62,911 nt of DNA from a virus: the IMG/VR virus record IMGVR_UViG_3300045988_079349; one strand, given 5' to 3'. Within the stretch, counting starts at the first letter, position 1. Each line of letters starts with the position of its first letter. Both the position numbers and the translations under genes were made by a program. Of this stretch, positions 5,935 through 59,833 are shown in pieces. A model generated the notes under the pieces. It had not been told where the DNA came from. It saw nothing but the letters and a program-made list of their open reading frames with translations, and did no database searches.

Positions 5935-6260
5935 CTTGTCCTTTGATTATATTGTACCACACTATCGGGAGTTTGTCAAGAGGTTTTTCAAACTTTTTTC
6001 AAGAGCTTTTGCCCTTTACTTGTTTGCCCTCTCTCGTTCCCCTTATAGTGTAACACACTTTGGAGAGTTTGTCAAGCCCTTTTTTATTCACTTTTCAAGG
6101 TTCCTTGCCTTGTTTTCTGTACTTATTATAGCACACTCACAAGGGCTTGTCAAGAGGTTTTTTGAAAGATTTTTGAAAGTTCGCTGTCGCTGTCTACCGT
6201 TCGTCTCTCTCACTTTCTGTACTTATTGTACCACACCACAAAGCGGATTTCAATTGTGAG
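5935..6260 (-). promoter_or_regulatory. tandem array of three (plus one degenerate) sigma70 promoters with extended -10, carried on ~85-bp direct repeats
   Basis: Minus-strand reads: TTGACAaactcccgatagtgtgGTACAAT; TTGACAaactctccaaagtgtgtTACACT; TTGACAagcccttgtgagtgtgcTATAAT. The plus-strand ORF 5594..6259 is an artefact of this repeat. Confidence 0.6.
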
Positions 6261-7639: not shown

Positions 7640-7870
7640 GATGGTATTATTATAGCATATTTTATGCTTGGTGTCAAGAGGAATTTTATATTTTTTTTCT
7701 CCGTTGAAAAAGGCGTCGCGATAACCTCTCTCACAAAAGGGACTCTTTACCCTACTCTGGAGAACTTTTTCCTTTCCTCCTGACATGATAATAATACCAT
7801 AATTTTGGGATAACTTCAAGATGGGATTTTGCACAAGATTTTCACTTGAAAATTGTGCAACATCACAACA
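7640..7870 (-). promoter_or_regulatory. proximal promoter (TTGACA-17-TATAAT) plus upstream operator/promoter module
   Basis: Minus reads TTGCACAA-N16-TTGTGCAA then TTGAAG-17-TGgTATTAT. This module is almost identical to the one at 9195-9290. Confidence 0.55.
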
Positions 7871-7955: not shown

Positions 7956-8144
7956 ATCCCTATGAATTACGGTCTTGAAAATGCTCCTAAGGATGCAAAT
8001 GATAATCCAGATGCCGAAAGTGATTTTCCACGAGAAGGTGAGGGCAAACGCCCAACAGATGAGCCAGATCAGCAGGGCCGTGCCGAAGAAAGAAACCACA
8101 CAGGTGACAAGAACTATAAGGGCGGCAACGAGAAAAGCAAACAT
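7953..8144 (-). CDS. small two-TM membrane protein (63 aa)
   Basis: ORF track; AGGAAGGAGA RBS; hydrophobic throughout. Confidence 0.5.
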   Translation of the reverse strand: MFAFLVAALIVLVTCVVSFFGTALLIWLICWAFALTFSWKITFGIWIIICILRSIFKTVIHRD

Positions 8145-8153
8145 TTTTGAAAC

Positions 8154-8324
8154 ATCTCCTTCCTATCGGGAACGCCTTAAATGGCGTTCCCGACTTTAAA
8201 GCACTTGGCCGAAGGCGACCAAAGAGAACCGGCCTTGCGCTTGGCGTCAGAACGGGCGCGGTCAACATCCTTGCCCACACCCACGAACACATGGCCCGCC
8301 GCAGTCTTAAAGTAGAAATTCATC
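8154..8324 (-). CDS. hypothetical small protein (~56 aa, MMNFYFKTAAGHVFVGVGKDVDRARSDAKRKAGS...)
   Basis: AAAGGAAG RBS then ATGATG. A perfect hairpin GGGAACGCCttaaatGGCGTTCCC spans its stop. Preferred over the track ORF 7987..8292, which has no RBS. Confidence 0.35.
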
Positions 8325-8459
8325 ATAGTAAAGCTTCCTTTCTTTTATGAGGGTTATCCCCTCTTGATGATTAAATTATACCACAATGCGGTGAGATTGT
8401 CAAGAACTTTTTTACGTATTTTCCAGATATGGGGCGGGGATTTCACCCGCCCCTTTTAT

Positions 8460-8924
8460 TTAGTCCAGATTGTTGATATATTCAATAATGTTTGTAGTTT
8501 GGGGGTCTACGGTATCCCCTAAATGCCAGCCGTTTCTAATTTTGCCGTTATCATCAAAGAGGATAAACGGCGGTTCATAGAAACTACGGAATACACATTT
8601 AGCTTTAGTTGTTCCATACGCCACACAATGGCATTTATGGGCCGGAAATTTATGCCTTGCAAGCCATTCCTTTTTGGCGGCTGTGACTGCTTTCTTATAT
8701 TCAGGGGGGCTTTCAGGGGGCAACCATGTAATAACTCGAACCTCCCACCCGTTACTAATTGCGTTTAGAAGCGCATTTCGGAGGGCGTTCATATCCCACA
8801 TGGGGGCGGCGTCTCGGAATGGGCTGGGGTCTCCATCGCGGAGTTTTTCAAGCCAGTTGGGGACTGCGTATAGATCTGCAATTGTCCCGTCCATATCAAA
8901 GCAGAGCATTTTTTTAGTTATCAT
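8460..8924 (-). CDS. HAD-superfamily 5'(3')-deoxyribonucleotidase-like protein
   Basis: N-terminal HAD motif I LCFDMDGTIADLY; NT5C-like size and layout. Confidence 0.6.
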   Translation of the reverse strand: MITKKMLCFDMDGTIADLYAVPNWLEKLRDGDPSPFRDAAPMWDMNALRNALLNAISNGWEVRVITWLPPESPPEYKKAVTAAKKEWLARHKFPAHKCHCVAYGTTKAKCVFRSFYEPPFILFDDNGKIRNGWHLGDTVDPQTTNIIEYINNLD

Positions 8925-8954
8925 ATATATATAACCTCCTTTTGTTTTATTATA

Positions 8955-9179
8955 CTACCTGTTGCCTATCTTGTCAACAAGTTTTTCAAAGAAATTTTTA
9001 TGCCGATATACCTTATAAGGCATTGACGTATAATCCACATAAATTAGAGGGTCGCGCAAAAGAATAGCTTGCATATAGACCCCATAATTCTCTGTGGTGG
9101 TAGTACCACCAAATTGGCGGCGGTAGATTTCAGCCACAGTTAAACACTCATTAGGCCGAATAAACTTTGAAGGTTTCAT
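8955..9179 (-). CDS. hypothetical protein (74 aa)
   Basis: ORF track; AAGGAGGG RBS. Confidence 0.5.
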   Translation of the reverse strand: MKPSKFIRPNECLTVAEIYRRQFGGTTTTENYGVYMQAILLRDPLIYVDYTSMPYKVYRHKNFFEKLVDKIGNR

Positions 9180-10914: not shown

Positions 10915-11235
10915 TTACAGCATAGACAGAAGGGCGTCAATGTCAACCTCACTGGATACGCGGTCGGCCTCCTCGTCAAAGACTGCCTTCAAAATGTCGG
11001 CCGCATCATCTGGAGTACAGGCATCCTCAAGCAAGAACTTCCCCAGAGATTGAACCAAAGCTAAATCAGCCGAATGGCGGTCTACCGTACGCATCGCCAT
11101 ATGAAGGGCAATCAGGCCATCCTTATCCTCCTGGGTCATCTTAGGCAGAGTAGTCATAATATGCTTCCTTTCTGGTTTATAGAGTTTTCCTTCTCTTGAT
11201 AGTGTTATTATATCATAAAGGGCTAGGTTTGTCAA
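10915..11235 (-). CDS. hypothetical protein (106 aa)
   Basis: ORF track; promoter TTGACAaacctagccctttatgatataaTAACAC-like upstream. Confidence 0.5.
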   Translation of the reverse strand: MTNLALYDIITLSREGKLYKPERKHIMTTLPKMTQEDKDGLIALHMAMRTVDRHSADLALVQSLGKFLLEDACTPDDAADILKAVFDEEADRVSSEVDIDALLSML

Positions 11236-14303: not shown

Positions 14304-14681
14304 CTACTGCTGATTGAGTTCTTTTTGCTGGTCTTTCGTTGCCCAATCAAGAGAGGTTCTGACCGTCGGACGCTTGCGGTATTGCTCCGCCTCTGCCTCT
14401 GTGCCGCCTTTAGCTAAAGCGTAGGCTTTCCAGTCTATCGCTCCTTTAGCGGTAGTCTCTTTATAGACCACCGCATGAACGGCGCCCTTTATCTGGACTG
14501 TGCCGTACAGATAAGAGGTCTTATCCGTGGTCTTGAACTCTTTCCCCAAACGGGTGAAAAGCTCTTTCGCTTTGGCCTTGGCCGCTTTCTCTGCAACCTC
14601 TGCCGCCGCTACTGCTTGCTTAGCGGCTAAGTACTCCATGATGACCTTCCTATCATCATTAGTAAAATCAATCTTTTTCAT
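14304..14681 (-). CDS. hypothetical Ala/Lys-rich protein (125 aa)
   Basis: ORF track; promoter TTGACA..TGaTACAAT at about 14725-14765. Confidence 0.5.
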   Translation of the reverse strand: MKKIDFTNDDRKVIMEYLAAKQAVAAAEVAEKAAKAKAKELFTRLGKEFKTTDKTSYLYGTVQIKGAVHAVVYKETTAKGAIDWKAYALAKGGTEAEAEQYRKRPTVRTSLDWATKDQQKELNQQ

Positions 14682-14945: not shown

Positions 14946-15317
14946 GCGTGGCTTTTTACTTTCATGCTTTAATGAGTGAAAGAGGCTGACTACACTTCAG
15001 CACTTTACCATGTGAAAGGGGAGGGTGTATTTTGGGAAAAACTGGAAATTTTTTCGCAAATTCGTTCTGCCACGCCATTTCAAAATCCAAATCGTACTTT
15101 CAATCTCAATAACGGAAAAAAGATGAAAGGCTAAATTTAACCTTTCATCTTTTTTCCACAACTAGGGCAAAAATTATATTCTCCTGCTTCATCATAGGTA
15201 ACTAATAAATCGCCATCTTCCTTATAACACGAATGAGTGAATCCGCAATTTAAACACAAAGAATATAAGGCTCCATTCCCCTTAAATTTTATAATAAGCC
15301 ATTTTCCATTCTATCCC

Positions 15318-15755
15318 TTAATGGTATAATTGATATTTTCTGCCAATCTTATCAATCTCCTCAGCTTCCATTGGCCTAAATCCAATACAAGTGAGAGTCC
15401 CTTCAGGACTCTCTTTTTCCAGCTCTGTCCTGCAAGCATCGTAAATCAAAAAGTAATCTTTATACTCCTCCATACCGAGCTCTTTAGCTGCTTCGACCGC
15501 CCGCAATAAATCATCTTTATTCTTCGCGCGGCAAACAACTTTAGTCTCTGCCCCCGTTATCCAATCATGGAATAAGTCTGTATCGAGACTTATATCCATA
15601 TGATACATAATGCCATCTCTTTCCCGAACCACTTCTTTGCTTCCCCAAAGAATCTTTTCCAAAAGAAAAGCAATAGAAGCATGGGAAACTTGCGCAGCTA
15701 GCTTACCCGGAGACATATTTAAATCTTTTCTAGCTATAATTAACTGTTTATACAT
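15318..15755 (-). CDS. pth2: peptidyl-tRNA hydrolase, PTH2 family
   Basis: LIIARKDLNMSPGKLAAQVSHASIAFL matches the PTH2 signature (vVRtDLkMgkGKiaAQcsHA). Confidence 0.65.
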   Translation of the reverse strand: MYKQLIIARKDLNMSPGKLAAQVSHASIAFLLEKILWGSKEVVRERDGIMYHMDISLDTDLFHDWITGAETKVVCRAKNKDDLLRAVEAAKELGMEEYKDYFLIYDACRTELEKESPEGTLTCIGFRPMEAEEIDKIGRKYQLYH

Positions 15756-16504
15756 TCTTTACCTGCTTTCAAAAATGCTCTAAAATTCTGGGAATTGCGG
15801 TCAGGAATTGCAAAATAAATATTTGGAATATTATAATTGCGAGCTGCGCCTATGAGCAAGGTTGCGACCGTATACGGATCTTGCATAAAAACTCCACAAC
15901 CCCAGGCTCCCGCGACTAGATTTTCCACACCGTTTTCCTCAGCAATCTGATACATAAAGTGAATTCGATTTTCAAGAACTCTATCATTCTCGCTTTTACT
16001 CACACTCTGGTATCTATGCGCCGTTCGGAAATTCGGGGCCGCGCAAGTTATAACATCTGCTTCCTTTTGTTTGTTATTCCGCTCGAATACTACACTAGGA
16101 GAATACAGCGCTCTATTCAAGTATAAAGCCTTATTTAACCTCTGCCGATTCCATGCGTAATACGTCCCATCAAAAGCAAGAAGAATAGGGTAAAGATTGG
16201 ATTCATGACACAGAGCCTCTTCTTGCGCAGGACTACCTTCTAGGAAGAAACCACCAGGACTTTTATAACTGGCATAGTTAAGAATTGCTGTTCTACCATT
16301 GTCAGATAAGTTGAATAGACAAGATACGCTATCCATATCTGTTAGAGTAAAAGCTGGTTTCTGATTGCCGGATTCATGCTGTGTAAAAGAATCTGGACTA
16401 TATACATATGTGCGCTCGATAGATAATTTAGTGTTTGCGGCAAGTCTAGTTTTAATATCTTCATAATGAGCTCGTGCCTTGATTGCGCGCTCCTGTTTTG
16501 TCAT
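15740..16504 (-). CDS. macro-domain / bacterial PARG-like protein (TIGR02452/DUF2263 family)
   Basis: NYASYKSPGGFFLEGSPAQEEALCHESNLYPIL and LVAGAWGCGVFMQDP match the DUF2263 PARG-like signature motifs. Confidence 0.6.
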   Translation of the reverse strand: MTKQERAIKARAHYEDIKTRLAANTKLSIERTYVYSPDSFTQHESGNQKPAFTLTDMDSVSCLFNLSDNGRTAILNYASYKSPGGFFLEGSPAQEEALCHESNLYPILLAFDGTYYAWNRQRLNKALYLNRALYSPSVVFERNNKQKEADVITCAAPNFRTAHRYQSVSKSENDRVLENRIHFMYQIAEENGVENLVAGAWGCGVFMQDPYTVATLLIGAARNYNIPNIYFAIPDRNSQNFRAFLKAGKECINS

Positions 16505-16703
16505 CGCGGCCTCCTTTTATAAAAATGCCGTTGGGCAAAATTAAATAATTGTCTTATTTTATTTTTCAAATAAAGTGTGTTGAGTTTTTAATTCCTCGAT
16601 CTTCTACTTTAACTCTTTGTTTTCTTTTATTACTTTTGCATATTCGCATGAATCATCGCATCTAATTGGATCATACTATTGATGCAATCTAAGATAACAA
16701 TAA

Positions 16704-17063
16704 TCAATGCATGGGTTCATATTTACACCCCTTTATTCTACAATCTAGTAAACACTGTCCTGTAGCTCCATCACAGGGAATTGCATCAGGGTAATCCTCA
16801 AAATAAGACGAAGCTAATAGGACTTCATACCCGAGTTCTCGCAATATTCTTTCTGCGATATATCTATTCCTCAGCTTTACCCATTCTTCTCTATTTATTT
16901 TTGTTTCTCTGTATATTTCTCTGGATTTCTCCATATCTACTGTTATGCTGCCATCAATATTAGTCTTAAATGTTGAATCCTGTGTACGATAAAATTCTCG
17001 AAAAGGATTTTCAATATGAAGAACCTCTCTAGCATAATTATCAAAATCTTCTGAGAATTTCAT
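16704..17063 (-). CDS. hypothetical protein (ATG overlaps the folD stop as TAATGA)
   Basis: Track ORF 16704..17096; the more likely start is MKFSEDFDNY at about 17063. Confidence 0.5.
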   Translation of the reverse strand: MKFSEDFDNYAREVLHIENPFREFYRTQDSTFKTNIDGSITVDMEKSREIYRETKINREEWVKLRNRYIAERILRELGYEVLLASSYFEDYPDAIPCDGATGQCLLDCRIKGCKYEPMH

Positions 17064-17854
17064 TATCTTCGCGCCTGTTTCGCTAACTATAAGCAATTTT
17101 TCATCAACCCCAATCTAGTCAATAATCCCACCCCTCCGGGCACAGGAGTTGACCACACTTCATTTCTCTTTGCAATATCTTCAAGTTCAACAAAATCGCC
17201 TTGAATAAAATTCGCCTAATTTCTACGAATACCAACATCAACAACAATAGCGTGAGGGCAAGCCTCTCTTGTCAAAGTAAAATCTCCAACTGCGGATACT
17301 ACTAAATCTGCTATTCTTGCTAAATAAAGCTTCGCATTTACATTTGTTTTACTGTGACAGATAGATACAGTCATATTTCTCGCCAACAACTCTTTCGCCA
17401 TTGGCTTACCAACTATATTACTTCTACCTAATATTAAAGCACTTTTACCTTCATACTTAAAACCACAGTCATCAAGATAGTCTACTATTCCTCTTACCGT
17501 TGCCGGTAAAACAAGAGTAGAAGAAGTTAAACCGTCGCAGTCTTTTATCGTAGGAATTACATCAATAGAAAAAGAACTCAATGAATCTCTTAGTGGCATT
17601 TGTGCTATAATACAATCAGTATCTATACTATTTATGTAATTATTTAAATCTGCGGGAGTCCAGTGTTCTGGAACTTTAATCACGCTTACTGGCCATCCTA
17701 ATTCATCAAAGTCGTCTACTTTTTTCTATATATAAATCTAATTTCCGGCATCCCCGTTAGTTGCATCAATTATGGTCAATGATGGCTTGACATCGGACTG
17801 CCGCAATTCATCTTTCTATTGTTTAAAATATTCTTTTATGTTAATCTATTGCAT
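17063..17854 (-). CDS. folD: FolD-like bifunctional methylene-THF dehydrogenase/cyclohydrolase, translated through 6 in-frame TAG codons
   Basis: Joins the track ORF 17216..17683 to both of its flanks through TAG. N-terminus ...TIIDATNGDAGN[TAG]IYI[TAG]KKVDDFDELG...CIIAQMPL; core GRSNIVGKPMAKELL...VVDVGIRRN[TAG]ANF...; C-terminus ...TPVPGGVGLLT. Confidence 0.75.
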
Positions 17855-18179
17855 CTGGTTCTAGCCCCCATGGATCATCAGTATCATAATCAATCATATC
17901 ATAGAATGATATTTTGTTATTAGGCGTTATTTCTAAAACCTAATGTGGGATACAACATATTTCATAATCAGAATCTCTATCTAAATTATATGAAGCATAA
18001 ATATGCAAAGCCGTTGGTCTTGCATTATTGATATTTTGAACATCCCATAAGTCAACAGTGTTTTTATGTCCAAGTATGTCTGTTAGAACTTCTGGCTATA
18101 CTGCTATGCTTATAATTAAAATGTTAAAGTAATACTATGCTCGTTTTGGTAATTCAGAATAGGGTGTATCGAAAAACAT
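17841..18179 (-). CDS. hypothetical protein (112 aa) with 3 in-frame TAG codons
   Basis: GGAGG RBS then ATG; MFFDTPYSELPKRA[TAG]YYFN...IPH[TAG]VLEITPNNKISFYDMIDYDTDDPWGLEPDAID then TAA. Confidence 0.4.
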
Positions 18180-18209: not shown

Positions 18210-18250
18210 ATTATATTATATCATTTTTAAATAAATTGGTCAAATTTTAT
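18210..18250 (-). promoter_or_regulatory. sigma70 promoter (TTGACC-17-TATAAT) driving the minus-strand operon; lies in a divergent promoter region
   Basis: Minus reads TTGACCaatttatttaaaaatgaTATAAT, about 25 nt upstream of the GGAGG RBS. Confidence 0.55.
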
Positions 18251-18294
18251 TATTTATTTGTAAAGTTTTGTCAAATATAATAGGAGATGATAGA

Positions 18295-19008
18295 ATGAAG
18301 AAAACACATTGTATTTATATGCATAAAAACAAGATTAATGGGAAAATTTATGTTGGTCAAACATTTTAGGATAATCCTAATGCTAGATGGCAAAACGGGC
18401 ATGGATATATAAAACAGCCAAAGTTTTTTTCAGATATTATAAAATACGGATGGATAAATTTTGAACATATTATTTTAGAAGAAAACTTAACGCAATAGGA
18501 GGCGAATGAAAGAGAAAATTTTTGGATTCAATATTTTGATAGTTGTAAAAATGGGTATAATACAATTTCAGAGAATAATAGATCAGAGGTATAGAAAAAA
18601 ACAACAAATAGCCTTATTGTATGCTTAAATACAAATAAATCATATAAAACATTAAAAGAAGCGTCTTTGGATACCGGAGTTGATCCATCTGCAATTTCAA
18701 GATGTTATGGAGGATAGCGTAAAAGTGCAGGAATAATAAATGGTGTTCCTGGGTTTTGGATTTTAACAACATCGGATAAAAGCCTTATTAATAAAATAAA
18801 AAATAATTATAATGATGCTATAAGAAAGATAGTTTGTGTTGAGACTTCTAGAATTTTTAATTCTTTAGATGAGGTAATAGAATATTGTGGATTGCCAGTA
18901 TCTTCTTCAAATAGAGCAAGATTAAAAAGTATTTTAAAATATAAGACAAATTCTTCTTTTGGGCGAGATAAAGAGTTAAATATAAAATTACATTGGAGTT
19001 ATCTATAA
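18295..19008 (+). CDS. GIY-YIG homing endonuclease (I-TevI-like, with NUMOD DNA-binding repeats); 4 in-frame TAG codons
   Basis: MKKTHCIYMHKNKINGKIYVGQTF[TAG]DNPNARW...FEHIILEENLTQ[TAG]EANERENFWIQYFDS...; NUMOD-like IVCLNTNKSYKTLKEASLDTGV and IVCVETSRIFNSLDEVIEYCGLP; TAA stop. Confidence 0.7.
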
Positions 19009-19040: not shown

Positions 19041-20126
19041 TTGTTATTATATGAGTATAAAAAGGAGATGAACCAGTATATGATAAAATTAGACTATACG
19101 ATTGAATCTCCCGAAGAGCGCAAGGCGCTTGTCGAAAAAATAATCGCAGAAAATCCTGATTTAACTCCAGGTTATTTAGAAGTATTAGCAGATTATTTAG
19201 TTCTATGTATGGAGAAACAAGAGAAGAAAGAGAAGAATATATTGACTGATAACCGAATGGCTACCGTCAATAAACGAGAATGTTCTTTTGAGGGACTCGC
19301 TTCATAGATGGAAAATGGCGAGGATGGCATTTATGGTTTAATGTCAGATAATAAAAATGTTATATTTTAGCCAAAGATTTCTATTACACAAAAAGATTTA
19401 GATTCTATACCATGTTTAAAATAGTTAAGAGAAACCATTAATGCTTGGGAAGGTGCCTTGAAACGCGCCGCGGGAACGAAACAAGCCTATATGATGAAAA
19501 AAGCATTAATAGAAATGCGAAAAGATTAGTATATTATTAAATAGGCATATCAAAAGCCTATAGTTCCTTGTAAGCTAACAAGAAATACGAGAACACATAT
19601 ACCTCTTGATGATGAAAGTTATCTTAATGGATAGGAAGTAGTCGTTAAAGGTATTTCCTTAATGAATCCAAATGTAGTTTCTGCTATTTTATGCAATTAT
19701 TCAAAATTAAAAGAAGATAGTTATGATTAGTTCGATGGAGATACATGGTATCTAATTCAAGCATTTGAAGAGATATGCGATAAAGCTCTTGAGGATTTTC
19801 CAATCTATTTACGAATTGTTGAGTTAAAAATTGATAAAAAGCAGAATAATGAGATATAGGAAATATTGAGTGAAGAGTTTGGAAAAACATATAGCGTGGA
19901 ATATATCTCTAGTTTATGGAGAAATAAAATTCCTAAATTAATTGCCGAAGCTGCTTTAGAGGATTTTTTATATTGGTAGTATAAAAATAGAAATTACCCA
20001 ATGAAAAAATGTTCTAAATGTGGGCAATTAAAGCCAGCCCATAATCAATTCTTTTCAAAAAATAAGACAAGTAAAGATGGATTATATTCAATCTGTAAAC
20101 ACTGTCGTAATAAGAAAAGGGGTTGA
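19041..20126 (+). CDS. hypothetical protein (~361 aa) with a C-terminal zinc ribbon; about 12 in-frame TAG codons
   Basis: Extends the track ORF 19041..19307 through TAGs to a TGA; C-terminus CSKCGQLKP...SICKHCRNKKRG. Confidence 0.5.
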
Positions 20127-26338: not shown

Positions 26339-27028
26339 ATGGCTAAGAGTTCTAAAAGATTAGGTAATGCTACTTTTGTCCAATATGGATATGGTCAAGT
26401 AGAACCAAACCATCTTTCCGCTCCAAGAAATGGTCAGGTATATGCTCAGCTTCCTGCTGCTAGCACAATCACCCTTCTTGAGAATGGTCAATTCGTAAAG
26501 TATGACTATGCTAAGGGTGTATGTGATTTTAGCACAGAGGCTACTTCTGGTGCTTGGATGATGGTATTCAATGAGGTAAAAATTTATAGAGATCGTGAGA
26601 CTGATGCCGATTTTGCTATGATTAAAGATAACTATAACGCTCGTGTTTATAGCCCAATCGGACAGACCGTTTCTACACTCGCTACCATTAATGACTATAC
26701 TGGTGAAGCTGTACGTGAAGGTAGTAACGTAGCATATAAAAAGAATATGGAAACATTTACTTATCCAGCTTTGATGCCAGAAGGAACTAAAATGGTTCCA
26801 CGTGTAATTAAGATTAGTATTGGTGATATTTGGACAACTAATACTATTAAGGCTGATGCCGGTTCACTTGCTGTTGGAGATCGTTTAAAGATTGGTACTG
26901 ATGGTTATTTAACCGAGGATACTGAATCTTCTGCTAAGGGTGGAGATTTAGATCCTATCTTTACAGTAGTAAAAGTATACACCATGCCCGATCTTCAACC
27001 CGGTGTAAAAGTACAGCGTGTAGGTTAA
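26339..27028 (+). CDS. TAG-free structural protein (229 aa), possibly head decoration/auxiliary capsid protein
   Basis: ORF track; lies between the scaffold and capsid genes. Confidence 0.45.
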   Translation: MAKSSKRLGNATFVQYGYGQVEPNHLSAPRNGQVYAQLPAASTITLLENGQFVKYDYAKGVCDFSTEATSGAWMMVFNEVKIYRDRETDADFAMIKDNYNARVYSPIGQTVSTLATINDYTGEAVREGSNVAYKKNMETFTYPALMPEGTKMVPRVIKISIGDIWTTNTIKADAGSLAVGDRLKIGTDGYLTEDTESSAKGGDLDPIFTVVKVYTMPDLQPGVKVQRVG

Positions 27029-27047
27029 TTGGAAGGAGTGAAGAAGA

Positions 27048-28100
27048 ATGTTAGATAAAGCTAATTTACTTAGTTTAATGAAGACTGTCGCCAATGCAAA
27101 TCCTTCTGGTACCTATAGCTATCAAGGAGAATCCTTTAGCTACGACGCTTTGAACACCACTTTGCGCAATGAGTTAAATGAGCTTGTTGGCACAGATGAA
27201 CTTTATAGAGAAAATAAACATACTCTATTCTCTTTAATTGAGCAAACTATGGATGAAGTTGTTCCTAATCGTTTACTCAATTCTTATGGCAATTTTGCCG
27301 AGATTAGAACTTTCGGACAGGGAGATAAACCTGTATTTACTCGTAGAACTGGACTTACCCGTGCTAAGCAATTCATCACTCGTGTGGGACTTGCTGGCGT
27401 ATACGAGACCTTTAAGCTCGGTTCTGAGAGCTTCGAAGTTGGTACAAGTGCTATCGGCGGAGCTGCTCGTATCGGATTCGAGGAGTTCCTCGACGGAAGA
27501 GTAAACTTCGCAGAACTTACTCAGATTGTAACTGAGGGTATGCAAGAGCTTATTTATAGAGAGATTGCTCAAGCTCTTATGGGTTCTATTAATCAGCTTC
27601 CCGCGGCAAACCGTTGTGCCGTTGCTGGTTTTGATGAAGCTACTATGGATTATCTTGTAAATACTGCTAGTGCTTATGGTCAGCCCACTATTTACTGTAC
27701 TCGTGAGTTTGCAGTAAAGATGATTCCAGACAACGAGGCTTGGATTTCTGATAACATGAGAGATCAGTATTGGGGAACTGGATACCTTGCTAACTACAAG
27801 GGAACTAGAGTGGTAATTCTACCTCAAACCCTTGAGGATGAGACTAACTCTAGAAAGATGATTGACCCTGGTTATGCTTGGGTTATCCCCGGTGGAGCAG
27901 ATACTCGTCCTGTTAAAGTTGCTTTTGAGGGTACTACTCACGTGCGCGAGCGCGATGATAACGACGACTGGTCTCGTGATATTCAGGTTTACCGCAAGGT
28001 CGGAGTTGGCGTAATGATGGCAAATAACATTTTCTCTTACGTTGATACTGAACTTCAAGGTGAGCTTGATAATACTAACCCAAATCCAAATAATGGTTAA
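27048..28100 (+). CDS. major capsid protein (putative HK97-fold), 350 aa, TAG-free
   Basis: ORF track; position after the scaffold gene; strong terminator immediately downstream. Confidence 0.6.
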   Translation: MLDKANLLSLMKTVANANPSGTYSYQGESFSYDALNTTLRNELNELVGTDELYRENKHTLFSLIEQTMDEVVPNRLLNSYGNFAEIRTFGQGDKPVFTRRTGLTRAKQFITRVGLAGVYETFKLGSESFEVGTSAIGGAARIGFEEFLDGRVNFAELTQIVTEGMQELIYREIAQALMGSINQLPAANRCAVAGFDEATMDYLVNTASAYGQPTIYCTREFAVKMIPDNEAWISDNMRDQYWGTGYLANYKGTRVVILPQTLEDETNSRKMIDPGYAWVIPGGADTRPVKVAFEGTTHVRERDDNDDWSRDIQVYRKVGVGVMMANNIFSYVDTELQGELDNTNPNPNNG

Positions 28101-28102
28101 TT

Positions 28103-28140
28103 AAAAGGGGATAGGGAAATATCCCTATCCCCTTTATTTA
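28103..28140 (+). terminator. intrinsic terminator after the capsid gene
   Basis: AGGGGATAGGGAaatATCCCTATCCCCT followed by TTATTTA. Confidence 0.6.
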
Positions 28141-28161
28141 TTGAGAAAAAGGAGATATAAT

Positions 28162-28698
28162 ATGAAAGATAAGTGTATTGTTTATAATAAAAGTGCGGGC
28201 CGCGCGGTATATAAACTGCCTGAGCTTGGTGTACGTCGTATGTTCTATCCAGGTGAGCATAAAGAGATTAGTGTATCTGAGCTTGAAAAGTTGGTTCAAA
28301 CACCCGGAGGCCGCAAGCTGATTTATAATTATCTATTAATTGATGATAAAGAAATTATTGAATATCTTATTAATGGGAAAGTTGAACCAGAATATTGGTT
28401 AAAAGAGAAAGATATTGATTCGTGGATGCAGTCATGCTCTTTGGATGAATTCAAGGATGCTCTTGATTTTGCCCCTGATGGGACAAAAGATTTGATTAAG
28501 GCTCACGCGGTTTCTCTTCCTTTGAATGATATTTCAAAGCGAGATGCGATAGAAAAACAATTAGGTTTTAACGTTACTAAAGCGTTGGAATTAACCGCGG
28601 ACGAAGGAAAAAATTCTAAAAATGAGGTTAAGCCTGTTAGAAGAGCATCGGTTGCAAGTGATGATACTCCAAAGCGTAGAGTAACTATATCCGAGTAA
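28162..28698 (+). CDS. hypothetical protein (178 aa from the internal ATG), TAG-free
   Basis: Track ORF 28141..28698; AAAAAGGAGATATAAT RBS before MKDKCIVYNK. Confidence 0.5.
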   Translation: MKDKCIVYNKSAGRAVYKLPELGVRRMFYPGEHKEISVSELEKLVQTPGGRKLIYNYLLIDDKEIIEYLINGKVEPEYWLKEKDIDSWMQSCSLDEFKDALDFAPDGTKDLIKAHAVSLPLNDISKRDAIEKQLGFNVTKALELTADEGKNSKNEVKPVRRASVASDDTPKRRVTISE

Positions 28699-31842: not shown

Positions 31843-33237
31843 ATGCGTTTTGGTATTCGTGAGATTTGCGATGTAGTGCTTCGTGCGAAGAGTTATCAAA
31901 CCCTTGGTAATCGTAAGTTCTACAAAAATGAACCAGTTTTATATTTCGACACTTTAAGAACCTCTACTCTTGAGGGTGCTGCAACAACAGTATATGCGCA
32001 GGGCGGACGTGGATATTCTAGATTGATTGCTTGGGAAGGTGAGCGTACTCTAACCTTTACAATGGAAGATGCTCTACTTTCTCCAGAAAGCTTCTCTATT
32101 CTTTCTGGTGCTGGCCTACTTGATGCAACAAAAGAAGCTCCTATCTATGTTCACCAGACTTCTCAGATTGAAGTTGAGACTGCCAATACTATTATTGTTC
32201 CAGACAAGGCTTGCTGGAATGGATTTACTGACCATGATAATGAAATGTATCACCGTTCTGCCGACATCTTTGTGATGGTGTTAGGCGATGATGGTCAAGT
32301 TAATGCCGAGCCTTGTATTCCTGTTTCTGTAAGTTACACAGAAGATGGCAAAACAACTTTAACTTGTTATTCTCATGCTGGCGTACTTCCTGCGGGAACC
32401 ATTGTTTTAGTTGACTACTATGTAAAGCGTACCGGTGGAGCACAGATGATTGAAATTACTGCTGATAAGTTTGGTGGTAACTATTATCTTGAGGCTTCAA
32501 CTCTATTCCGTCGTGAGAGCGATGGCGTAGATATGCCTGCTGAATTTATTATTCCTAACTGTAAAGTTCAGAGTAACTTCACATTCAGTATGGCAGCTAA
32601 CGGAGATCCTTCTACCTTTACCTTTACAATGGACGCTTTCCCTGATTACACCAAGTTCGACCAAACCCATAAGGTATTGGCTGCAATTCAAGTAATCACT
32701 GATGAAAGCGGTGAAACCGAGGAAACTCGTGAGCCATGCTCTGAGAATGTAGGTACTTATGAGAGCGAAGCTGCTGATGTGACTGTAAGTTTCGTATCTA
32801 ATAGTGCTACAGCCGCAGAGCTTGATGTTACTGGTAGTGTAACAGGAAAGGCTTATGACACTGAGACTTATGGCGATACTATAGCAGAAGCTGCTCAGAT
32901 CAGCCTGCAAATCCCAGTAGAGAGTGATAGTACCCAATATAATGTGGTAACTACAAACCCAGCTTATGAGAGATACTTCTCTACAGACCCAGGAATTGAA
33001 GGTAATACAAAGACTCAAACCGTTAGCGGCGAAGAGTTAGCTCAAGGATTGCTTGTAATTCTTACTAGCGAAGATCAGGCAACTCCTATTACCGCAAAGA
33101 TTAATAAGATTAATGGTGATTTTGAAAAGACTTATACCATTAATAACAAACTTAGCTTTGCTACATCTGCCGCAGCAAAAGCTAAGACTAGCACCCGCAA
33201 TAAGTTAGTCTCTGTCACCGAGGATGACGGAATTTAA
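31843..33237 (+). CDS. major tail (tube) protein with an Ig-like C-terminal extension (464 aa), TAG-free
   Basis: ORF track; AAGGAGG RBS; lies upstream of the chaperone and tape measure genes; strong terminator after it. Confidence 0.5.
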   Translation: MRFGIREICDVVLRAKSYQTLGNRKFYKNEPVLYFDTLRTSTLEGAATTVYAQGGRGYSRLIAWEGERTLTFTMEDALLSPESFSILSGAGLLDATKEAPIYVHQTSQIEVETANTIIVPDKACWNGFTDHDNEMYHRSADIFVMVLGDDGQVNAEPCIPVSVSYTEDGKTTLTCYSHAGVLPAGTIVLVDYYVKRTGGAQMIEITADKFGGNYYLEASTLFRRESDGVDMPAEFIIPNCKVQSNFTFSMAANGDPSTFTFTMDAFPDYTKFDQTHKVLAAIQVITDESGETEETREPCSENVGTYESEAADVTVSFVSNSATAAELDVTGSVTGKAYDTETYGDTIAEAAQISLQIPVESDSTQYNVVTTNPAYERYFSTDPGIEGNTKTQTVSGEELAQGLLVILTSEDQATPITAKINKINGDFEKTYTINNKLSFATSAAAKAKTSTRNKLVSVTEDDGI

Positions 33238-34730: not shown

Positions 34731-34794
34731 AACTTGACAATAGTTAATTTTTCTAGTATAATAAAAATATAAATGAGATAAAGGAGATTTTACA

Positions 34795-35325
34795 ATGACT
34801 TTTAAAGATTTGGGGCTTGAGCCTAAAGTTAAATATACAGAAGTAAAGGTTGGAGCAGATAAGATTTTGTCTGTGGCTAATTATCTTCCTATTGCTGATA
34901 AAACAAATCTTATTATGTTTGTCACTGATTTATCAATAGATGAGGCAACTGGCTGTTTTAGTCCAGTTAGAGTGGAGACCTATTTTGCTATTGCTATATG
35001 CAGATGGTATGGCGGAATTACTTTTGAGCCAGAAGATGTGCATGAAAATATCGCAAAAACCTATGACACTCTTGAGACAAACAGTGTAATTGATGCAATT
35101 CGTGATATTATTCCGGTGGAGGAACTATCTTTTATTGAGGATTTAGTTAAGGATACTATAAGCGATATTTCAAGATATAATAGTTCTGCGGCCGGCATTA
35201 TTCAGATGATGAATAAAAATGCTTCTGGTCTTGATACATATATTACTGATATGCTAGAAAAGATTAAGAATGGTGAAAATCTTGAAACACTATCAGTAAT
35301 TAAAGATGTGGTTGGAAAAGATTAA
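34795..35325 (+). CDS. tail assembly chaperone candidate (176 aa), TAG-free
   Basis: ORF track; immediately precedes the tape measure gene; terminator-like hairpin at about 35375-35410. Confidence 0.4.
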   Translation: MTFKDLGLEPKVKYTEVKVGADKILSVANYLPIADKTNLIMFVTDLSIDEATGCFSPVRVETYFAIAICRWYGGITFEPEDVHENIAKTYDTLETNSVIDAIRDIIPVEELSFIEDLVKDTISDISRYNSSAAGIIQMMNKNASGLDTYITDMLEKIKNGENLETLSVIKDVVGKD

Positions 35326-35435: not shown

Positions 35436-38400
35436 GTGGCTAATAAAAGATTAAACTATTAGATTGGGTTTACCGCTGATACTACTGAACTTTATAGAGC
35501 AGTAAATGATGCCGTTAAAGCATTAAATAGTATTGGTTCAGGCCAAAAATCTTTTTTAGGTTTAGATAGTGCTACTCAATAGGCAAGAGAACTTTAGACA
35601 ATTTTAACCTCTGCTTTTAATGAAAATACTGGGAAATTAGATCTAACTACATTTGCTAAAAGTTTAGAGAGAAGTGGAAAAAGTTTAAATGACTATGGAC
35701 GTAGCTTAACAAGTATTGGTCCAGCAGGATAGGAAGCTTTTTCATAGGTAGTTAAAGCTATATCTTCTGCTGAACTTCCATTAGTAAGAACGAGTAAATT
35801 ATTCGATCAGCTATGGATAACAATGAAAAATACTGTTCGTTGGCAAGTTACCTCAACTGCTTTAAATAGTTTTGTTGGTACTCTTGAAACCGCCTATGGT
35901 TATGCAAAAGATTTAAATGAATCTTTAACAAACATTCGTATAGTTACTGAAAATTCTGCGGAAGATATGGCTCTATTCGCGGAATAGGCAAATAAAGCTG
36001 CTAAAGCATTAAGTACAACTACTGTAGACTATACTGATGCAGCTCTAATTTATTATCAATAGGGTCTTACTGAGTAGGAAGTTTTAGATAGAACTGAAAC
36101 TACTATAAAAATGGCGAACGCCGCAGGTGTTAGTGCCTAGACTGCATCTGATCAGTTAACTGCGGTATGGAATAACTTTTATGATGGAAGTAAAAGTCTT
36201 GAGTATTATGCAGATGTCATGGTTCGCTTAGGTGCGGATACTGCATCAAGCTCTGATGAAATTTCAGAAGGTATCTAGCAGTTCGCCGCAGTTGCAGAGA
36301 CAGTAGGTTTGAGTTATGAGTATGCAGCATCTGCATTAGCAACTGTTACTGCTACAACTCGTGAATCTGCGAATACTGTAGGTACTGCATTTAGAACATT
36401 ATTTGCACGTATTCAGGGCTTAAATCTTGGCGAAACACTTGATGATGGAACTACTTTAAATAAATACTCTTAGGCTCTTGATAAAGTTGGAATTAACATC
36501 TTTGATGTTAATGGAGAAATTAAAACCATGGATACTCTATTAGATGAAATGGGAGAGAAATGGGAAACTTTATCTAATGATCAATAGATTGCATTAGCAT
36601 AGACTGTAGCTGGAGTACGTCAATATACCCGCCTTATTGCTCTCATGGATAACTGGGATTTCTTCTAGGAAAATCTAGAGAGTGCGTATGGCGCTAGTGG
36701 TTCTTTACAGGAGCAGGCTGATATTTATGCTGAATCTTGGGAAGCAGCTAGAGATAGAGTAAGAGCATCTGCGGAAGATATTTATGATAGTATTATAAAT
36801 CCTGAATTATTTATAAGTGCTGATAACATAGCTTCTCCATTCTTATCTGGAATTGCAGATATTGTTGATGGAATGGGTGGATTAAATGGTATTTTATTAA
36901 CCACTGGTACATTAATCACTTCAGTTTATGGGGATAAGATTGCCAATTCAATGAGAAATATGGCAACAAATATTAGTATTATTACTGGAGTAGAAGCTGA
37001 ACGAGCTAGAGTATTATAGTCTAATGCTGTTGATATATTGAAAAATTTAGAATCTACTTATGCCGCAGGCGACGCAGAAGCATATAGATTAAATATTATG
37101 TATCGTTAGGCAGAAGTGTAGGGGGCTATTAATTCAAAATATGATTCGATGACTATTGAGCAGAGGAAATAGTTATAGTCACAATAGCAGTAGTTAGATA
37201 TACTTAGAGATGAAAATTTAATTATTGCTGACACTATAGGAAAACTATAGCAATCAGCTACGGAAAAATTTGGTTCAATTTTCATTAATATCCCTCAAGG
37301 CTCAGAAGGTTGGCAGGATCAGTTAAAAGCAGAAATAGATTAGTGGAACAAAAAAGCTAAAAAGACATATCGGATCAATTTAGAAATTAATCCTGACACA
37401 ACTGTTGAAACTGTTTTTAGTAATATTTCTAAATAGCTTGATTCATTAGCAAAAAAACATGCTAGTTTACGACTTATTTCTAATTAGTTTTAGAATTTAG
37501 ACGCTACAAGTGAGAAGTATGAATAGAATTTAAAAGAATTAATTGCTACCTACTCTAATTTAGGTACTTCAAATAAGACGGTCTAGGAGATGGAGTCTTA
37601 TTTAAAACGTCTTGGAACCCAAGCAGATAATACAGAAAGTCAAATTAAAGAATTGGGTAATGTCCTTTCTTAGCTTGGAGTAAATAAAAATAATATAAAT
37701 TCTTATATTGATACTTTGATGAATTTGCATTTATAGCTGCAAAGAGGAGAAATTACTTAGGAAGCATATAACAATGCTGTTTAGCGAGTTGTAACTAATA
37801 TTAATAACCTTAATTCTTCTTCTAAAGATTGGGCTAGTGGAATAGTATAGGCTGGAAATGCTATATCATCTCTTTTAATGGCGGTTAATGGCATCAATAG
37901 TATTGGTAGGGTTTTTTCCGATGAGGATATGACCTCTGGAGAAAGATTTATTACAATTCTAACTGGATTAAGTATGATTATTCCATCTGTTACTTCCGCT
38001 ATGAAATTCCTTAATCAAGAAAAAGCGATTTCTGTAGCGGTTACAGGAACAGAAGTTACTGTAACTGGAAGTAGTATAGCTGCAAATTTAGCTAGAACCG
38101 CTGCAAATAAAATTTTAGCAGTTTCTGAGGGAGAAGTGGCTACTGCGACTTAGGTAAGTAATGCAGCTATGGCAGCAAGATTGATTATGTTAGCTCCATA
38201 TGTAGCACTTATTGCAGCATTAGTAGGTGGAATCTACTTAGCAGTAAAAGCATACAATGCTGACGCGGACGCTGCGAAGCGAGCTGCCGAAGCTGCGGAA
38301 GAGACGCAACAGGCTGTAGAAGATGCTACTTCAGCGTATGAGGAATTAAAATAGACTATTTCGGATTATAGCGAAGCCCTTGATAGCATTAATGAGCTAG

Positions 38401-57976: not shown

Positions 57977-58616
57977 AACTCAATTCAATAGCTTTTAATT
58001 CATCTATTGAATTAGCTCCAAATATCTAGGTTTTATATTCTTGCATTAAGTGGTATTTTGGATATACCGCATTAGAAATAGCTAAACTTAGAGCGGATAA
58101 TTGCTCTAAAGTCCATGGTACACACTCTTCGTGTCGAGCGTGCCACTCAAGCGTAGGATTTTCTACTTCAGCAGCTACAGCCACCTAGAATTGATTGAGA
58201 TTTAAGCTAATCTCAGATTGGTCCTCCTACGTAATTCCATATTCTTTTCCATCGACCCAAGTTAACGGGTGGGTAGCAAGATACTCTGCGAATAGTTTCT
58301 TGTTTTCCTCTTGTTTATCATATTTTGCCTAATCTAAATCAGCGATGAAAGTACCATCTTCTTGATTATACTTTGAATAGTTAGGAATGACGTTTGATGG
58401 AATTGTTTCCAACTCTAATACTGTAACAGCATTAGGTTGATTTAATACATCGGCTTTGACTAGAGTGTAATGAGTATCACTATCTGAGCCGATAACCCCA
58501 GTTCCCTCTTCTTCCTCGCAGGCAACGACAATACCATTTGAGGATTGCAGTTTAATGTAACGTGCTTCTGAAAGAATATCAACTACTATATTCTCTCTAT
58601 TTAATAGAATATACAT
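57954..58616 (-). CDS. hypothetical protein (~220 aa) with 4 in-frame TAGs
   Basis: Track ORF 58329..58616 continues through the TAG at 58329 to a TAA at about 57954. Confidence 0.4.
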
Positions 58617-58768
58617 TACTTTATTTCAACTCCTTTGAATAATGAACGAAAATAATTGTCCATGTCCTGAATTATATAAAAGCAAGTTCCTTTAGAAATA
58701 TGCGCCCTCCAGCCCTAATAAGATTTCTAAACTTCTTCAGTTGAAATTTTATTATCTAACCATAAAGC

Positions 58769-59833
58769 CTACATTTTCTTTAGTTTTCTGCGCTGATGAG
58801 CTACTTTTTTCTTGAAAGGAAGTTGTATTATATGATTAGTTTCTGTGAGATGAAAATTCCACTTTAAATATTTAAAAGGAGCGTGGCGTTCGCCATCTGC
58901 GTGAATAGGAGAAATTCTAGTGATAGTAGTTTTCTTCTTATTCATCTTTAATCCTTGTTTATTTAAGCGAATTTCTATTTGTTTCTCACATTCGGCCAAG
59001 TATTTACTGTCATTATGGAGCAAGTATAAATCATCCATATAACGACCATAATACTTAATATGTAACTCTTCTTTTATGAAGTGGTCAATTTCGTTCAATG
59101 CTAGCAATGCGAATAATTGTGACGTTTGACTTCCTAATCCCAGGCTCTTTCTTTCATATTCATAATACTTACGACCAGGCTAGAAATGAGTAACATTAAC
59201 TCTTTCATACTTGTGTCGCTTACTTGTGTAATATATTTTACCGGGTATAGGTGAAGTGTCTTTTGTTAGCTTAAAAGAAAATGTATCTATCAAGTAACAA
59301 CATAACTAATAAACAAGTTTATCTTTTATTAGCCGTTTAGCTGCTTTCTTTAAAGATTCATGGTCAATAGAATCAAAATATTTCTGTATATCAATTCTTA
59401 ATCCATAAAAATCTTTTCCTAACCCATACTCTTTATGAGCCTATTGGAGATGTTTCTTAACTCTTTCCAGAGCGAAGTCTATTCCCTTTCCTTTTAGGGT
59501 TGCACAATTATCATAGATAAATCTAGGAGTTAATTCTGGTAGCAAAACTTGTTCACATAACGCATTTTGTACCAGTCTGTCGTTGATATGACACGCTCTT
59601 ATATCTCTTGGTTTGCCTCGTTCGATTATCGAAAAACAACTAAACACAAGCTGTTCGTATTCACACGCTCGCAGGTCAGCTTCTGTTTTTAAAATTGTTT
59701 CTATCCTATTCTCTCCAAAATTAATTGTACTATCTTTCCATCGAACGTTTCGACATACCTTATAAGACGCCTCATACATAGCGTCAAAACTACAAAAACG
59801 CTCGAAAGCAGTATCTTGTTTTATTTCAGACAT
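58769..59833 (-). CDS. DGR reverse transcriptase (~354 aa) containing 2 internal in-frame TAG codons and a TAG stop
   Basis: Track ORFs 59441..59833 and 58769..59107 are in the same phase; the gap between them is open except for TAGs at 59441 and about 59180. Motifs PRDIRACHINDRLVQNALC, SQLFALLALNEIDHF (DGR-type motif 4) and YGRYMDDLYLL (YxDD). Confidence 0.8.

Follow-up and report, generated by a model that had tools for sequence, protein, structure and literature searches.

In phages that have reassigned a stop codon, Borges et al. (bioRxiv 10.1101/2021.08.26.457843) proposed a code-switch model in which the early genes can be read under the standard code, the recoded stop abounds in structural and lysis genes, and recoding serves as a translational timer; the word "hydrolase" is absent from the text of that paper. 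In the operon described here, by contrast with that model, the boundary runs inside a single unit with an early promoter, where two upstream genes would be gated and genes downstream of them would not. The Prevotella Lak megaphages resemble our phage in being TAG-recoded and in encoding both FolD and a PARG-like protein (about 31-32% and 36-37% identity, respectively), but they are about 540-550 kb in size and have a Bacteroidota host, their FolD and PARG-like genes lie far apart, and PTH2 is undetected in them.

Peptidyl-tRNA hydrolases of the archaeo-eukaryotic type (Pth2) in jumbo and other large phages were discussed by Iyer et al. (2021, PMC7824862) as products of ribosome-rescue and RNA-repair genes, with the proposal that they free tRNA from peptidyl-tRNA. 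The Pth2 of our locus falls into the same Pfam and PHROG families (phrog_1866) but belongs to a TAG-recoded phage of probably about 150 kb, has about 25 extra residues inserted behind helix 1, and is coupled in its translation to a PARG-like gene. In the cultured Enterococcus phages EF1, EF5, H1 and VRE9_1-4 (MF001358, MF001361, OP534061, PP680567-70; ~134-142 kb), a PTH2 homologue (about 32% identity) likewise stands in an early/nucleotide-metabolism cluster. In EF1, H1 and VRE9 it adjoins the gene for dihydrofolate reductase (DHFR), with FolD about 1.5-2 kb away, and in H1 thymidylate synthase and a tRNA array are also near. These phages, however, use the standard code and are of another lineage; their cluster lacks a PARG-like gene, and its genes neither overlap nor share an operon.

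Bacterial-type poly(ADP-ribose) glycohydrolases (PARGs) have the signature GGG-X6-8-QEE with a catalytic Glu pair (PMC5966428). Their substrates are PAR, 2'-OH RNA ADP-ribose and 5'-phosphate ADP-ribose, and they reverse both kinds of RNA ADP-ribosylation and shield cells from the ADP-ribosyltransferase (ART) toxin RhsP2 (PMC11833690). The protein found here belongs to the same TIGR02452/PF10021 family as DrPARG (5zdg), T. curvata PARG (3sig) and S. coelicolor SCO0909, and the QEE motif is present. It differs from them in being encoded by a phage, in having no match to a PHROG family, in having Phe for the third signature Gly, and in having no PARP/ART partner in the window.

The window, that is, the whole stretch of 62,911 nucleotides analysed (IMG/VR virus record IMGVR_UViG_3300045988_079349), contains seven tightly packed minus-strand genes in the order A, folD, C, Cs, PARG, Pth2, F, located at the junction of a TAG-free early arm and a TAG-rich late arm (Table 1). 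As read from the sequence, they form a single operon: the genes are co-directional and close or overlapping (A/folD by 14 nt, folD/C by 1 nt, C/Cs by 17 nt and PARG/Pth2 by 16 nt), there is one promoter, no terminator occurs internally, including between Cs and PARG, and a terminator stands at the end. An earlier note on this DNA had described a single strong TTGACC-17-TATAAT promoter at 18210-18250 that drives a hypothetical gene with three TAG codons, folD with six, an unknown gene, a PARG-like gene and a PTH2 gene; the promoter, the layout, the positions and the TAG counts were all found as described. The note overlooked Cs, and gene F and the terminator carry the unit past its limits (15318-18179).

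Table 1. Features of the operon, in order of transcription (window coordinates)
Feature	Position	Strand	Length (aa)	In-frame TAG	Remarks
Promoter	18215-18243	minus			sigma-70/sigma-A type, TTGACC-17-TATAAT, TG extended -10; 11/12 consensus match
Gene A	17841-18179	minus	112	3	AGGAGG ribosome-binding site
folD	17063-17854	minus	263	6	methylene-THF dehydrogenase / methenyl-THF cyclohydrolase
Gene C	16704-17063	minus	119	0	helical protein, invariant C-terminal Cys4 cluster
Gene Cs	16559-16720	minus	53	2	CxxxC...CxxxC and coiled-coil tail
PARG	15740-16504	minus	254	0	bacterial type; DUF2263/TIGR02452 macrodomain ADP-ribosyl glycohydrolase
Pth2	15318-15755	minus	145	0	Pth2-family peptidyl-tRNA hydrolase; PF01981, phrog_1866
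Gene F	15137-15259	minus	40		zinc-ribbon ORF (CxxC...CxxC), TTG start; weak zinc-ribbon Pfam matches
Terminator	15113-15158	minus			intrinsic-terminator-like hairpin at gene F end, 21-bp stem, A-tract/U-tract arms

By its sequence, the promoter is of the class read by host sigma-A-type RNA polymerase, with a consensus that other early-arm promoters share. The stricter pattern TTGAC-N18-TATAAT was found at seven sites in the window, where chance would give 0.09, and six of these fall in the minus-strand early arm. Both the promoter sequence and its distance to gene A are kept in five relatives (L001, L002, L004, L005 and L086). The terminator hairpin has a dG of -29.5 kcal/mol (z -9.4), and none of 200 shuffles folds as well; a terminator-like hairpin within PTH2 (15413-15393) was rejected for want of a T-run.

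Gene A has no match in Pfam, NCBIfam, PHROG or PADLOC, and its orthologues at 52-62% identity carry 6-8 TAG. The assignment of folD is supported by the profiles PF02882 (122 bits) and PF00763 (34 bits, cut-off 32.8) and by phrog_7320; its product has both domains and aligns to C. jejuni FolD (3p2o) over the catalytic YxxxK motif (Y41-x3-K45), GRSNIVGKP, which is the NADP-binding GxSxxxGxP motif, and PVPGGVG. Since its NCBIfam score is far under the equivalog cut-off (140 vs 355), this is a divergent FolD. The gene opens in a minigene-like manner with ATG-CAA-TAG. Gene C, whose ATG has one base in common with the folD TAA (TAATG), belongs to a family with only 20 members in the last word-indexed homologue search. 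Cs has a good Shine-Dalgarno sequence (AGGGG) and is kept in relatives at about 50% identity with 0-2 TAG, and gene F is 90% conserved in L001. PADLOC gave no match for C, Cs, PARG or PTH2 either.

The PARG-like and PTH2 assignments of the earlier note are borne out by domain searches. PARG scores 182 bits against TIGR02452 (cut-off 50) and 91 bits against PF10021 (cut-off 23.5), and it aligns to DrPARG and TcPARG with a PDB E-value of about 1e-20. Its signature reads P83-G84-G85-F86...Q94-E95-E96, with the single deviation that the third Gly is Phe, at a position variable in the family, while G84, G85, Q94, E95 and E96 are invariant in the family. The diphosphate-binding loop GAWGCGVF (residues 199-206) matches the DrPARG loop exactly and does not vary within the family; Q94-E95-E96 and G199/G202-C-G-V-F206 are unchanged in 17 homologues. 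Confirmed relatives of this protein occur at 165 IMG/VR sites as well as in all 15 Lak genomes. No ADP-ribosyltransferase target, toxin or partner PARP was found in the window, and Pfam gave no match for nine early-arm proteins. With the invariant QEE and GAWGCGVF motifs and the bacterial precedent (PMC11833690), the proposal that the phage enzyme reverses ADP-ribosylation, possibly as an anti-defence function, is plausible.

Pth2 scores 83.2 bits against PF01981 (cut-off 23) over residues 2-144 and profile positions 1-115, although it is under the NCBIfam equivalog cut-offs (83 vs 126 and 67 vs 82), and its PDB matches are 1rlk, 1wn2, 1xty and 1q7s. The catalytic motifs, an N-terminal GK(L/I)AAQ with its Lys and D-x-x-x-T-E/Q with its Asp and Thr, align with the structures 1rlk and 1wn2, and K18, D106 and T110 are invariant in 15 homologues; in S. 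solfataricus Pth2 the catalytic residues are numbered K18/D86/T90. Conservation within the operon is highest for Pth2, at 83-84% identity vs about 60-65% for the others.

A DNA-level search of a phage GenBank collection returned a 75-bp match only, so that the genomic context was drawn from protein-anchored loci. The operon, its promoter and its TAG split are conserved in related SPbeta-like contigs of ~100-165 kb, and the nearest match in a genome collection, a 148,971-bp contig that had been binned with an Oscillospiraceae MAG, has the operon as well. The PARG and PTH2 genes stand near each other in tier-1 relatives, where PARG is followed by PTH2, in tier-2 relatives (L014, L015, L018/L145), where PTH2 is followed by PARG, and in further arrangements at L062, L108, L257, L291 and L304. 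An apparent relative with degraded PARG and PTH2 (L011) was dropped; its many small deletions look more like poor assembly.

The coverage by open reading frames is 0.25 under the standard code vs 0.86 with TAG read through. TAG positions align mostly with Q in relatives (2616 cases; E is next, with 578), and at folD columns 4 and 47 some lineages have TAG where TAG-free orthologues have Gln. On these alignments, TAG encodes Gln in this phage (code 15). The TAG-spanning alignment test of relatives, which near-identical loci or non-coding frames can confound, was run with identity caps and a positive control. Scans for a suppressor tRNA gave no tRNA of any kind in the window, which leaves some 90-100 kb of the genome outside it, nor in 16 of 17 related loci; the other locus, L062, has tRNAs, none with a CUA anticodon. 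The machinery of the code switch is therefore unseen in these regions.

TAG makes up about 50-60% of the Gln codons in recoded and late genes. In PARG it accounts for none of ten, in PTH2 for none of three and in C for none of two (together 0/15), and its absence from these genes exceeds chance; PARG is CAG-rich, resembling the early genes. The division into TAG-recoded upstream and TAG-free downstream genes, to which the earlier note had drawn attention, recurs in relatives: across lineages at about 60-65% protein identity, A has 3-8 TAG and folD 3-6, and C, PARG and PTH2 always have none. TAG is likewise absent from the late genes for the major capsid and a sheath-like protein, so TAG-free status is no proof of early expression. 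Moreover, folD itself is TAG-free in the tier-2 relatives, and L304, a more distant recoded relative, has one in-frame TAG within PTH2; the split is therefore lineage-specific rather than universal.

The reading that we favour, and consider moderately probable as a whole, is that the region is one early-class accessory operon read by the host RNA polymerase in an SPbeta-like tailed phage that infects gut Clostridia and reads TAG as glutamine, with Pth2 as a general accessory gene. We infer the early timing from promoter type and codon content. A (first in-frame TAG at codon 15), folD (TAG at codon 3) and Cs would remain incomplete until TAG suppression is set up, and gene C, since it starts on the folD stop codon, would probably depend on folD translation. 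The PARG gene is preceded by a strong ribosome-binding site of its own (AAAGGAGG) and Pth2 overlaps PARG, so that both could be translated immediately under the host's standard code. They would most likely be early maintenance or counter-defence enzymes for the translation apparatus, with PARG clearing ADP-ribose off the RNAs or proteins that host ADP-ribosyltransferases target and Pth2 releasing tRNA from peptidyl- or N-blocked aminoacyl-tRNA; FolD would give one-carbon units (for dTMP, purines and formyl-Met-tRNA) once replication and late synthesis run. If so, this is a conserved, concrete case in which recoding divides one early operon into immediate genes and genes that await suppression, which makes the recoding-as-timer model directly testable. 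Phage-borne bacterial-type PARGs are candidates against RNA- or protein-ADP-ribosylating defence toxins.

A more specific version, which we regard as unlikely, would make the in-frame TAG a translational timer within one early transcript, with the standard-code PARG-Pth2 pair repairing the translation apparatus against defence toxins. Both enzymes would be made within the first minutes after infection. PARG would take ADP-ribose off tRNA, rRNA or mRNA, at 2'-OH groups or 5' ends, and Pth2 would liberate tRNAs that are caught as peptidyl- or N-acetyl-aminoacyl-tRNA; A, FolD and Cs would be released only after the cell has switched to TAG = Gln. Were this true, the recurrent, non-obligate PARG-Pth2 linkage would mark an unrecognised phage module against RNA-modifying toxins.

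The earlier note had considered a phage-borne PTH2 notable in a genome that relies on stop-codon suppression, but a survey of its co-occurrence with recoding does not support a special link. PTH2 homologues are present in 46 phage GenBank records, mostly of cultured phages annotated with the standard code (of Mycobacterium, Enterococcus, C. difficile, Sinorhizobium, Xanthomonas and others), and none is from Prevotella (Lak), though all 15 TAG-recoded Lak genomes in the same database match the PARG-like and FolD queries. About 59 IMG/VR relatives, at about 56% identity, have PTH2 without a Gln-type TAG signal within 10 kb, a verdict that for these tier-3 contigs covers the PTH2 neighbourhood, so that their genomes may be recoded elsewhere; many of them end PTH2 itself with TAG. 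The tier-3 contigs are absent from the best 80 major-capsid alignment loci, and there are no late genes in their flanks. Homologues at about 52% identity also occur in Faecalibacterium chromosomes. We infer that large phages carry Pth2 as a general accessory gene rather than as recoding machinery, which corrects the tempting but unsupported idea that phage Pth2 is part of a recoding toolkit. An adaptation of Pth2 to stop-codon suppression, whereby it would recycle peptidyl-tRNA dropped at un- or poorly suppressed TAG (e.g., in the ATG-CAA-TAG of folD), would fit the TAG-free state of PTH2 and its 83-84% identity across the recoded tier-1 and tier-2 lineages, the TAG within the first 3-15 codons of several recoded genes, and the local recoding of all the closest 24 IMG/VR relatives that bear this PTH2. 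Against the survey and the TAG in the L304 gene, however, such an adaptation seems quite improbable.

Another possibility, to which we give little credence, is that PARG and PTH2 are recently acquired morons without a lytic role, perhaps conferring on lysogens immunity to ADP-ribosyltransferase toxins, and TAG-free by virtue of a standard-code origin. Their GC content of 0.40, vs 0.31-0.37 in the neighbouring genes, could indeed reflect recent acquisition, and the CAG-rich PARG would agree with this; PARG is variably present at the tier-2 locus, a relative's PTH2 (P0115) adjoins an integrase and bacterial genes, and bacterial PARG is a protective immunity enzyme (PMC11833690). However, the TAG-free state of PARG persists at only 65% identity while the adjacent A and folD have gained TAG, which points to selection, not recency; the operon's most conserved protein is PTH2, and the window shows neither an integrase nor a lysogeny module. 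The shift in composition and codon use at the Cs/PARG boundary might also be taken to split the operon into two transcription units, with the mapped promoter serving A-folD-C-Cs and an internal one, in the 54-nt gap before PARG, serving PARG-PTH2-F. A promoter-like site with a 9/12 match does occur 5' of PARG at 16583-16556, but it was rejected because such sites are at background level (20 found vs 16 +/- 4 in shuffles). A -10-like TATAAA in the gap is too near the Shine-Dalgarno sequence, which a transcript from there would lose, and the Cs-PARG interval is without a terminator; two units are thus very improbable indeed. As to the relation between the two enzymes, the 16-nt overlap of their genes here, and their proximity (within about 3 kb) in at least seven arrangements or lineages, would be expected of an obligate two-enzyme system acting on one substrate, e.g., an ADP-ribosylated and acylated tRNA 3' end. 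This is hardly likely, since PTH2 is within 6 kb at only eight of 80 PARG loci, PARG is missing within 10 kb of about 59 of 83 PTH2 loci, the L139 operon has PARG without PTH2, and each gene occurs without the other in Lak (PARG-like) and in the Enterococcus phages (PTH2); some contigs hold both genes 9-13 kb apart. PARG and Pth2 are neighbours in several lineages, yet most of their occurrences are unlinked.

The operon sits where the early and late arms of the window meet. When TAG is read through, translation of the minus strand starting at 18179 yields the genes A, folD, C, Cs, PARG, PTH2, and F, whose junctions are overlaps of 14, 1, 17, and 16 nt or else gaps of 54–58 nt; this layout shows what reads as one tightly packed operon with a predicted terminator at its end. 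The elements that an earlier note had listed here were confirmed and slightly extended, in that Cs, F, and the terminator were added.

Features of the operon, its surroundings, and the two arms of the window
Feature	Position	Strand	Remarks
A	18179-17841	-	112 aa, 3 in-frame TAG
folD	17854-17063	-	263 aa, 6 in-frame TAG
C	17063-16704	-	119 aa, 0 in-frame TAG
Cs	16720-16559	-	small ORF overlooked by the earlier note; 53 aa, 2 in-frame TAG
PARG-like	16504-15740	-	254 aa, 0 in-frame TAG
PTH2	15755-15318	-	145 aa, 0 in-frame TAG
F, zinc ribbon	15259-15137	-	40 aa, 0 in-frame TAG
Operon promoter	18243-18215	-	TTGACC-17 nt-TATAAT, TG before TATAAT; 11/12 match
Terminator hairpin	15158-15113	-	21-bp stem, A- and U-tract arms; dG -29.5 kcal/mol, z = -9.4
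Other perfect TTGAC-N18-TATAAT	6125-6153, 7649-7677, 8375-8403, 8949-8977, 11207-11235	-
Other perfect TTGAC-N18-TATAAT	34734-34762	+	late arm; directly upstream of TAG-free gene 34795-35325
GIY-YIG segment	18246-19013	+	768 bp; ORF 18268-19008; 2 nt from operon promoter -35
Early-arm gene	14304-14681	-	stop codon TAG
Sigma-factor-like gene	19041-20126	+	first of late arm; 9 in-frame TAG
Sigma-factor-like, YonG-like, portal, major capsid, sheath-like genes		+	late arm
581-aa gene		+	late arm, terminase position
2932-aa ORF	35436-44234	+	tape-measure position; 103 in-frame TAG
TAG-free late genes	26339-28698, 31843-33237, 34795-35325	+	zero in-frame TAG
Reverse transcriptase and 601-aa Big_3/DUF6273 gene region	58616-59833 and 60851-62656	-

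In this AT-rich window, loose promoter matches are no commoner than background (20 versus 16 ± 4), but the strict pattern TTGAC-N18-TATAAT is found at 7 sites where 0.09 would be expected. All but one of these lie on the minus strand in the early arm, and the TG extension is present at five of the six. This enrichment on the early arm shows the operon promoter to be of a putative early, host sigma-A class. Its sequence and its spacing to gene A are kept in relatives as far off as the locus L086. Between the divergent promoters lies a GIY-YIG homing-endonuclease gene (phrog_314; 4 TAG; GC 0.27). The segment that carries it is missing from all the close (tier-1) relatives compared there (L001, L004-L009, L011, L171-L176), and the tier-2 loci L021, L022, and L184 have a copy with 77% identity at this site or close to it.

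FolD matches PF02882 (122 bits), PF00763 (34 bits, barely over the cut-off), and phrog_7320; it can be aligned with C. jejuni FolD (3p2o), retaining YxxxK, GRSNIVGKP, and PVPGGVG, and is, by its score far under the NCBIfam equivalog cut-offs, a divergent member. The PARG-like protein (TIGR02452, 182 bits; PF10021, 91 bits) is clearly a member of TIGR02452/PF10021 as judged by these profiles; it can be aligned with DrPARG (5zdg) and T. curvata PARG (3sig), and its Q94-E95-E96 and GAWGCGVF loop are invariant in 17 homologues. PTH2 (PF01981, 83 bits; phrog_1866) is matched by solved Pth2 structures from archaea and human; K18, D106, and T110 are invariant, and an insertion of ~25 residues follows the first helix. 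The enzyme families of the operon are thereby shown with their predicted catalytic motifs intact. No family assignment for A, C, or Cs was found in Pfam, NCBIfam, PHROG, or PADLOC; C has four invariant C-terminal Cys, and its model gave only generic helical matches to known folds. In some homologues of the PARG-like protein (P0210, P0215), there is a fusion to a PF10686 domain; should this be the YAcAr SLOG domain, the fusion would hint at some connection with nucleotide or ADP-ribose-derived signalling.

Counting ORFs of 150 aa or more, coverage of the window is 86% with TAG read through versus 25% under the standard code, and TAG reads as a sense codon in the phage DNA of the window. IMG/VR, public assemblies, and GTDB genomes were searched for relatives with protein anchors, and the loci retrieved were placed in three tiers by PTH2 identity to that of the window (tier 1, at least 81%; tier 2, about 60%; tier 3, about 56%). 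In pairwise alignments of the recoded relatives, TAG stands opposite Q 2616 times, E 578 times, and N 462 times. Column 4 of folD is Gln in tier 2 and TAG in every tier-1 lineage; column 47, the conserved Gln of (S/N)-Q-x-Y, is TAG in the window and L021 and Gln elsewhere. At the level of aligned sequence, TAG is shown to be Gln. In C, PARG, and PTH2 together, TAG accounts for 0 of 15 Gln codons versus about 0.5 in the recoded genes, and this holds over 35% protein divergence; such absence agrees with selection to keep these genes readable in the standard code.

Early in infection, the host polymerase would transcribe the operon and, before suppression becomes active, ribosomes would get no further than codon 15 in A and codon 3 in folD. 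C is probably under-translated too, since no Shine-Dalgarno sequence is evident before it and its start codon sits on the stop of folD (TAATG). PARG, with the ribosome-binding site AAAGGAGG, and the overlapping PTH2 would be translated immediately, and FolD would serve one-carbon supply after the code switch, the onset of TAG being read as Gln. Bacterial-type PARGs strip ADP-ribose from the 2'-OH and 5'-phosphate of RNA and shield cells from an RNA-targeting ADP-ribosyltransferase toxin (PMC11833690). On the basis of this precedent and of known Pth2 chemistry, the PARG-Pth2 pair most likely protects or repairs the translation apparatus early on. The components of the operon belong to known kinds; of modest interest are the translational gating inside one operon and the under-described phage-borne bacterial-type PARG.

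Other readings of the operon can be set beside its relatives. Tier 1 (one of its members, a contig of 148,971 bp, was binned with an Oscillospiraceae MAG) has the gene order of the window, A-folD-C-Cs-PARG-PTH2, in subclades whose proteins are only 52–68% identical (PTH2, 83–84%). A always has 3–8 TAG, folD has 3–6, and C, PARG, and PTH2 have zero; the TAG partition inside the operon is shown, in these predicted genes, to be conserved. That PARG and PTH2 are recent cargo is unlikely beside this constancy; gene content differs further out. Tier 2 has folD-C-PTH2, with a downstream PARG in some members only, and there folD, C, PTH2, and PARG have no TAG, alongside recoded late genes on the flanks. 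Tier 3 (~59 loci, GC 0.32) has PTH2 alone, and many of its copies use TAG as stop. L139 has A-C-PARG-folD without PTH2; L304, a more distant, recoded Clostridia MAG contig, has A-x-PARG-x-PTH2 without folD, its PTH2 (7995-8645) being 216 aa in length with a long insertion and a single in-frame TAG, at codon 35. The PARG-PTH2 linkage is recurrent, as in L108 (PARG, two genes, then PTH2), but not obligate: PTH2 is at most 6 kb away in only 8 of 80 PARG-anchored loci, and on some contigs the two are 9–13 kb apart. An obligate couple of PARG and Pth2, for all their overlap in the window, is hence quite improbable. The operon shows no convincing promoter or terminator in its interior, and its division into two transcription units is very improbable indeed. 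In one tier-1 lineage, an additional 109-aa gene lies between PARG and PTH2 (L002, 9687-10016).

The earlier note had also tied phage PTH2 to stop-codon suppression. PTH2 should then track recoding, and it does not; the note's interpretation survives in part, without the claim that PTH2 is special to a recoded genome. By tblastn, PTH2 occurs in 46 phage records, with cultured phages of Mycobacterium, Enterococcus, C. difficile (phiCD211), Sinorhizobium, Xanthomonas, Pseudomonas, and Agrobacterium among its bearers. None of the 46 is a record of the Prevotella megaphages (Lak), and in the same database 15 of 15 TAG-recoded Lak genomes match the PARG-like and FolD queries. In the ~59 tier-3 loci, the comparison, which covered 10 kb around PTH2, gave no Gln-type TAG signal, a result that holds for this neighbourhood. 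PTH2 adjoins DHFR in H1, a cultured Enterococcus phage, with thymidylate synthase and a tRNA array nearby; in H1, EF1, EF5, and VRE9, FolD is ~1.5–2 kb from PTH2, and in phiCD211 PTH2 is near RtcB and NrdDG. Iyer et al. (PMC7824862) already described jumbo-phage PTH2 as a ribosome-rescue or RNA-repair factor, and Borges et al., in the text of their survey of recoding, nowhere use the word "hydrolase". A Pth2 role specific to recoding, despite the recoded setting of the window, is rather improbable.

The minus-strand arm (about 4.5–18.2 kb) is nearly without TAG and has a GC of 0.41–0.46; the plus-strand arm (18.3–57.5 kb) holds the late genes at a GC of about 0.33, with TAG as ~50–60% of Gln codons. 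Pfam YonD_N/YonG_N matches in close relatives mark the late arm as SPbeta-like. Read-through of the TAG stop of one early-arm gene would add 25 residues, and within one genome early genes appear to use TAG to end translation and late genes to use it as a sense codon. The sigma-factor-like gene matches phrog_5767, and its nine TAG suggest that late transcription itself may be gated by the code switch. Five late genes are TAG-free (26339-27028, major capsid (phrog_4088), 28141-28698, sheath-like, and a 176-aa protein); of these, the first four have a GC of 0.37–0.42, higher than their TAG-rich neighbours. Late genes that are presumably highly expressed thus show TAG avoidance too. The supergroup defined by the major capsid protein has more than 600 matches in IMG/VR.

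A reverse transcriptase gene (phrog_1423; 6 TAG) lies near that of a 601-aa Big_3 and DUF6273 protein, and the pair looks like a diversity-generating retroelement cassette. Many Faecalibacterium species have PTH2 homologues with ~51–53% identity in their chromosomal contigs (L266-L278, e.g., NZ_CP170812.1, 2.15 Mb).
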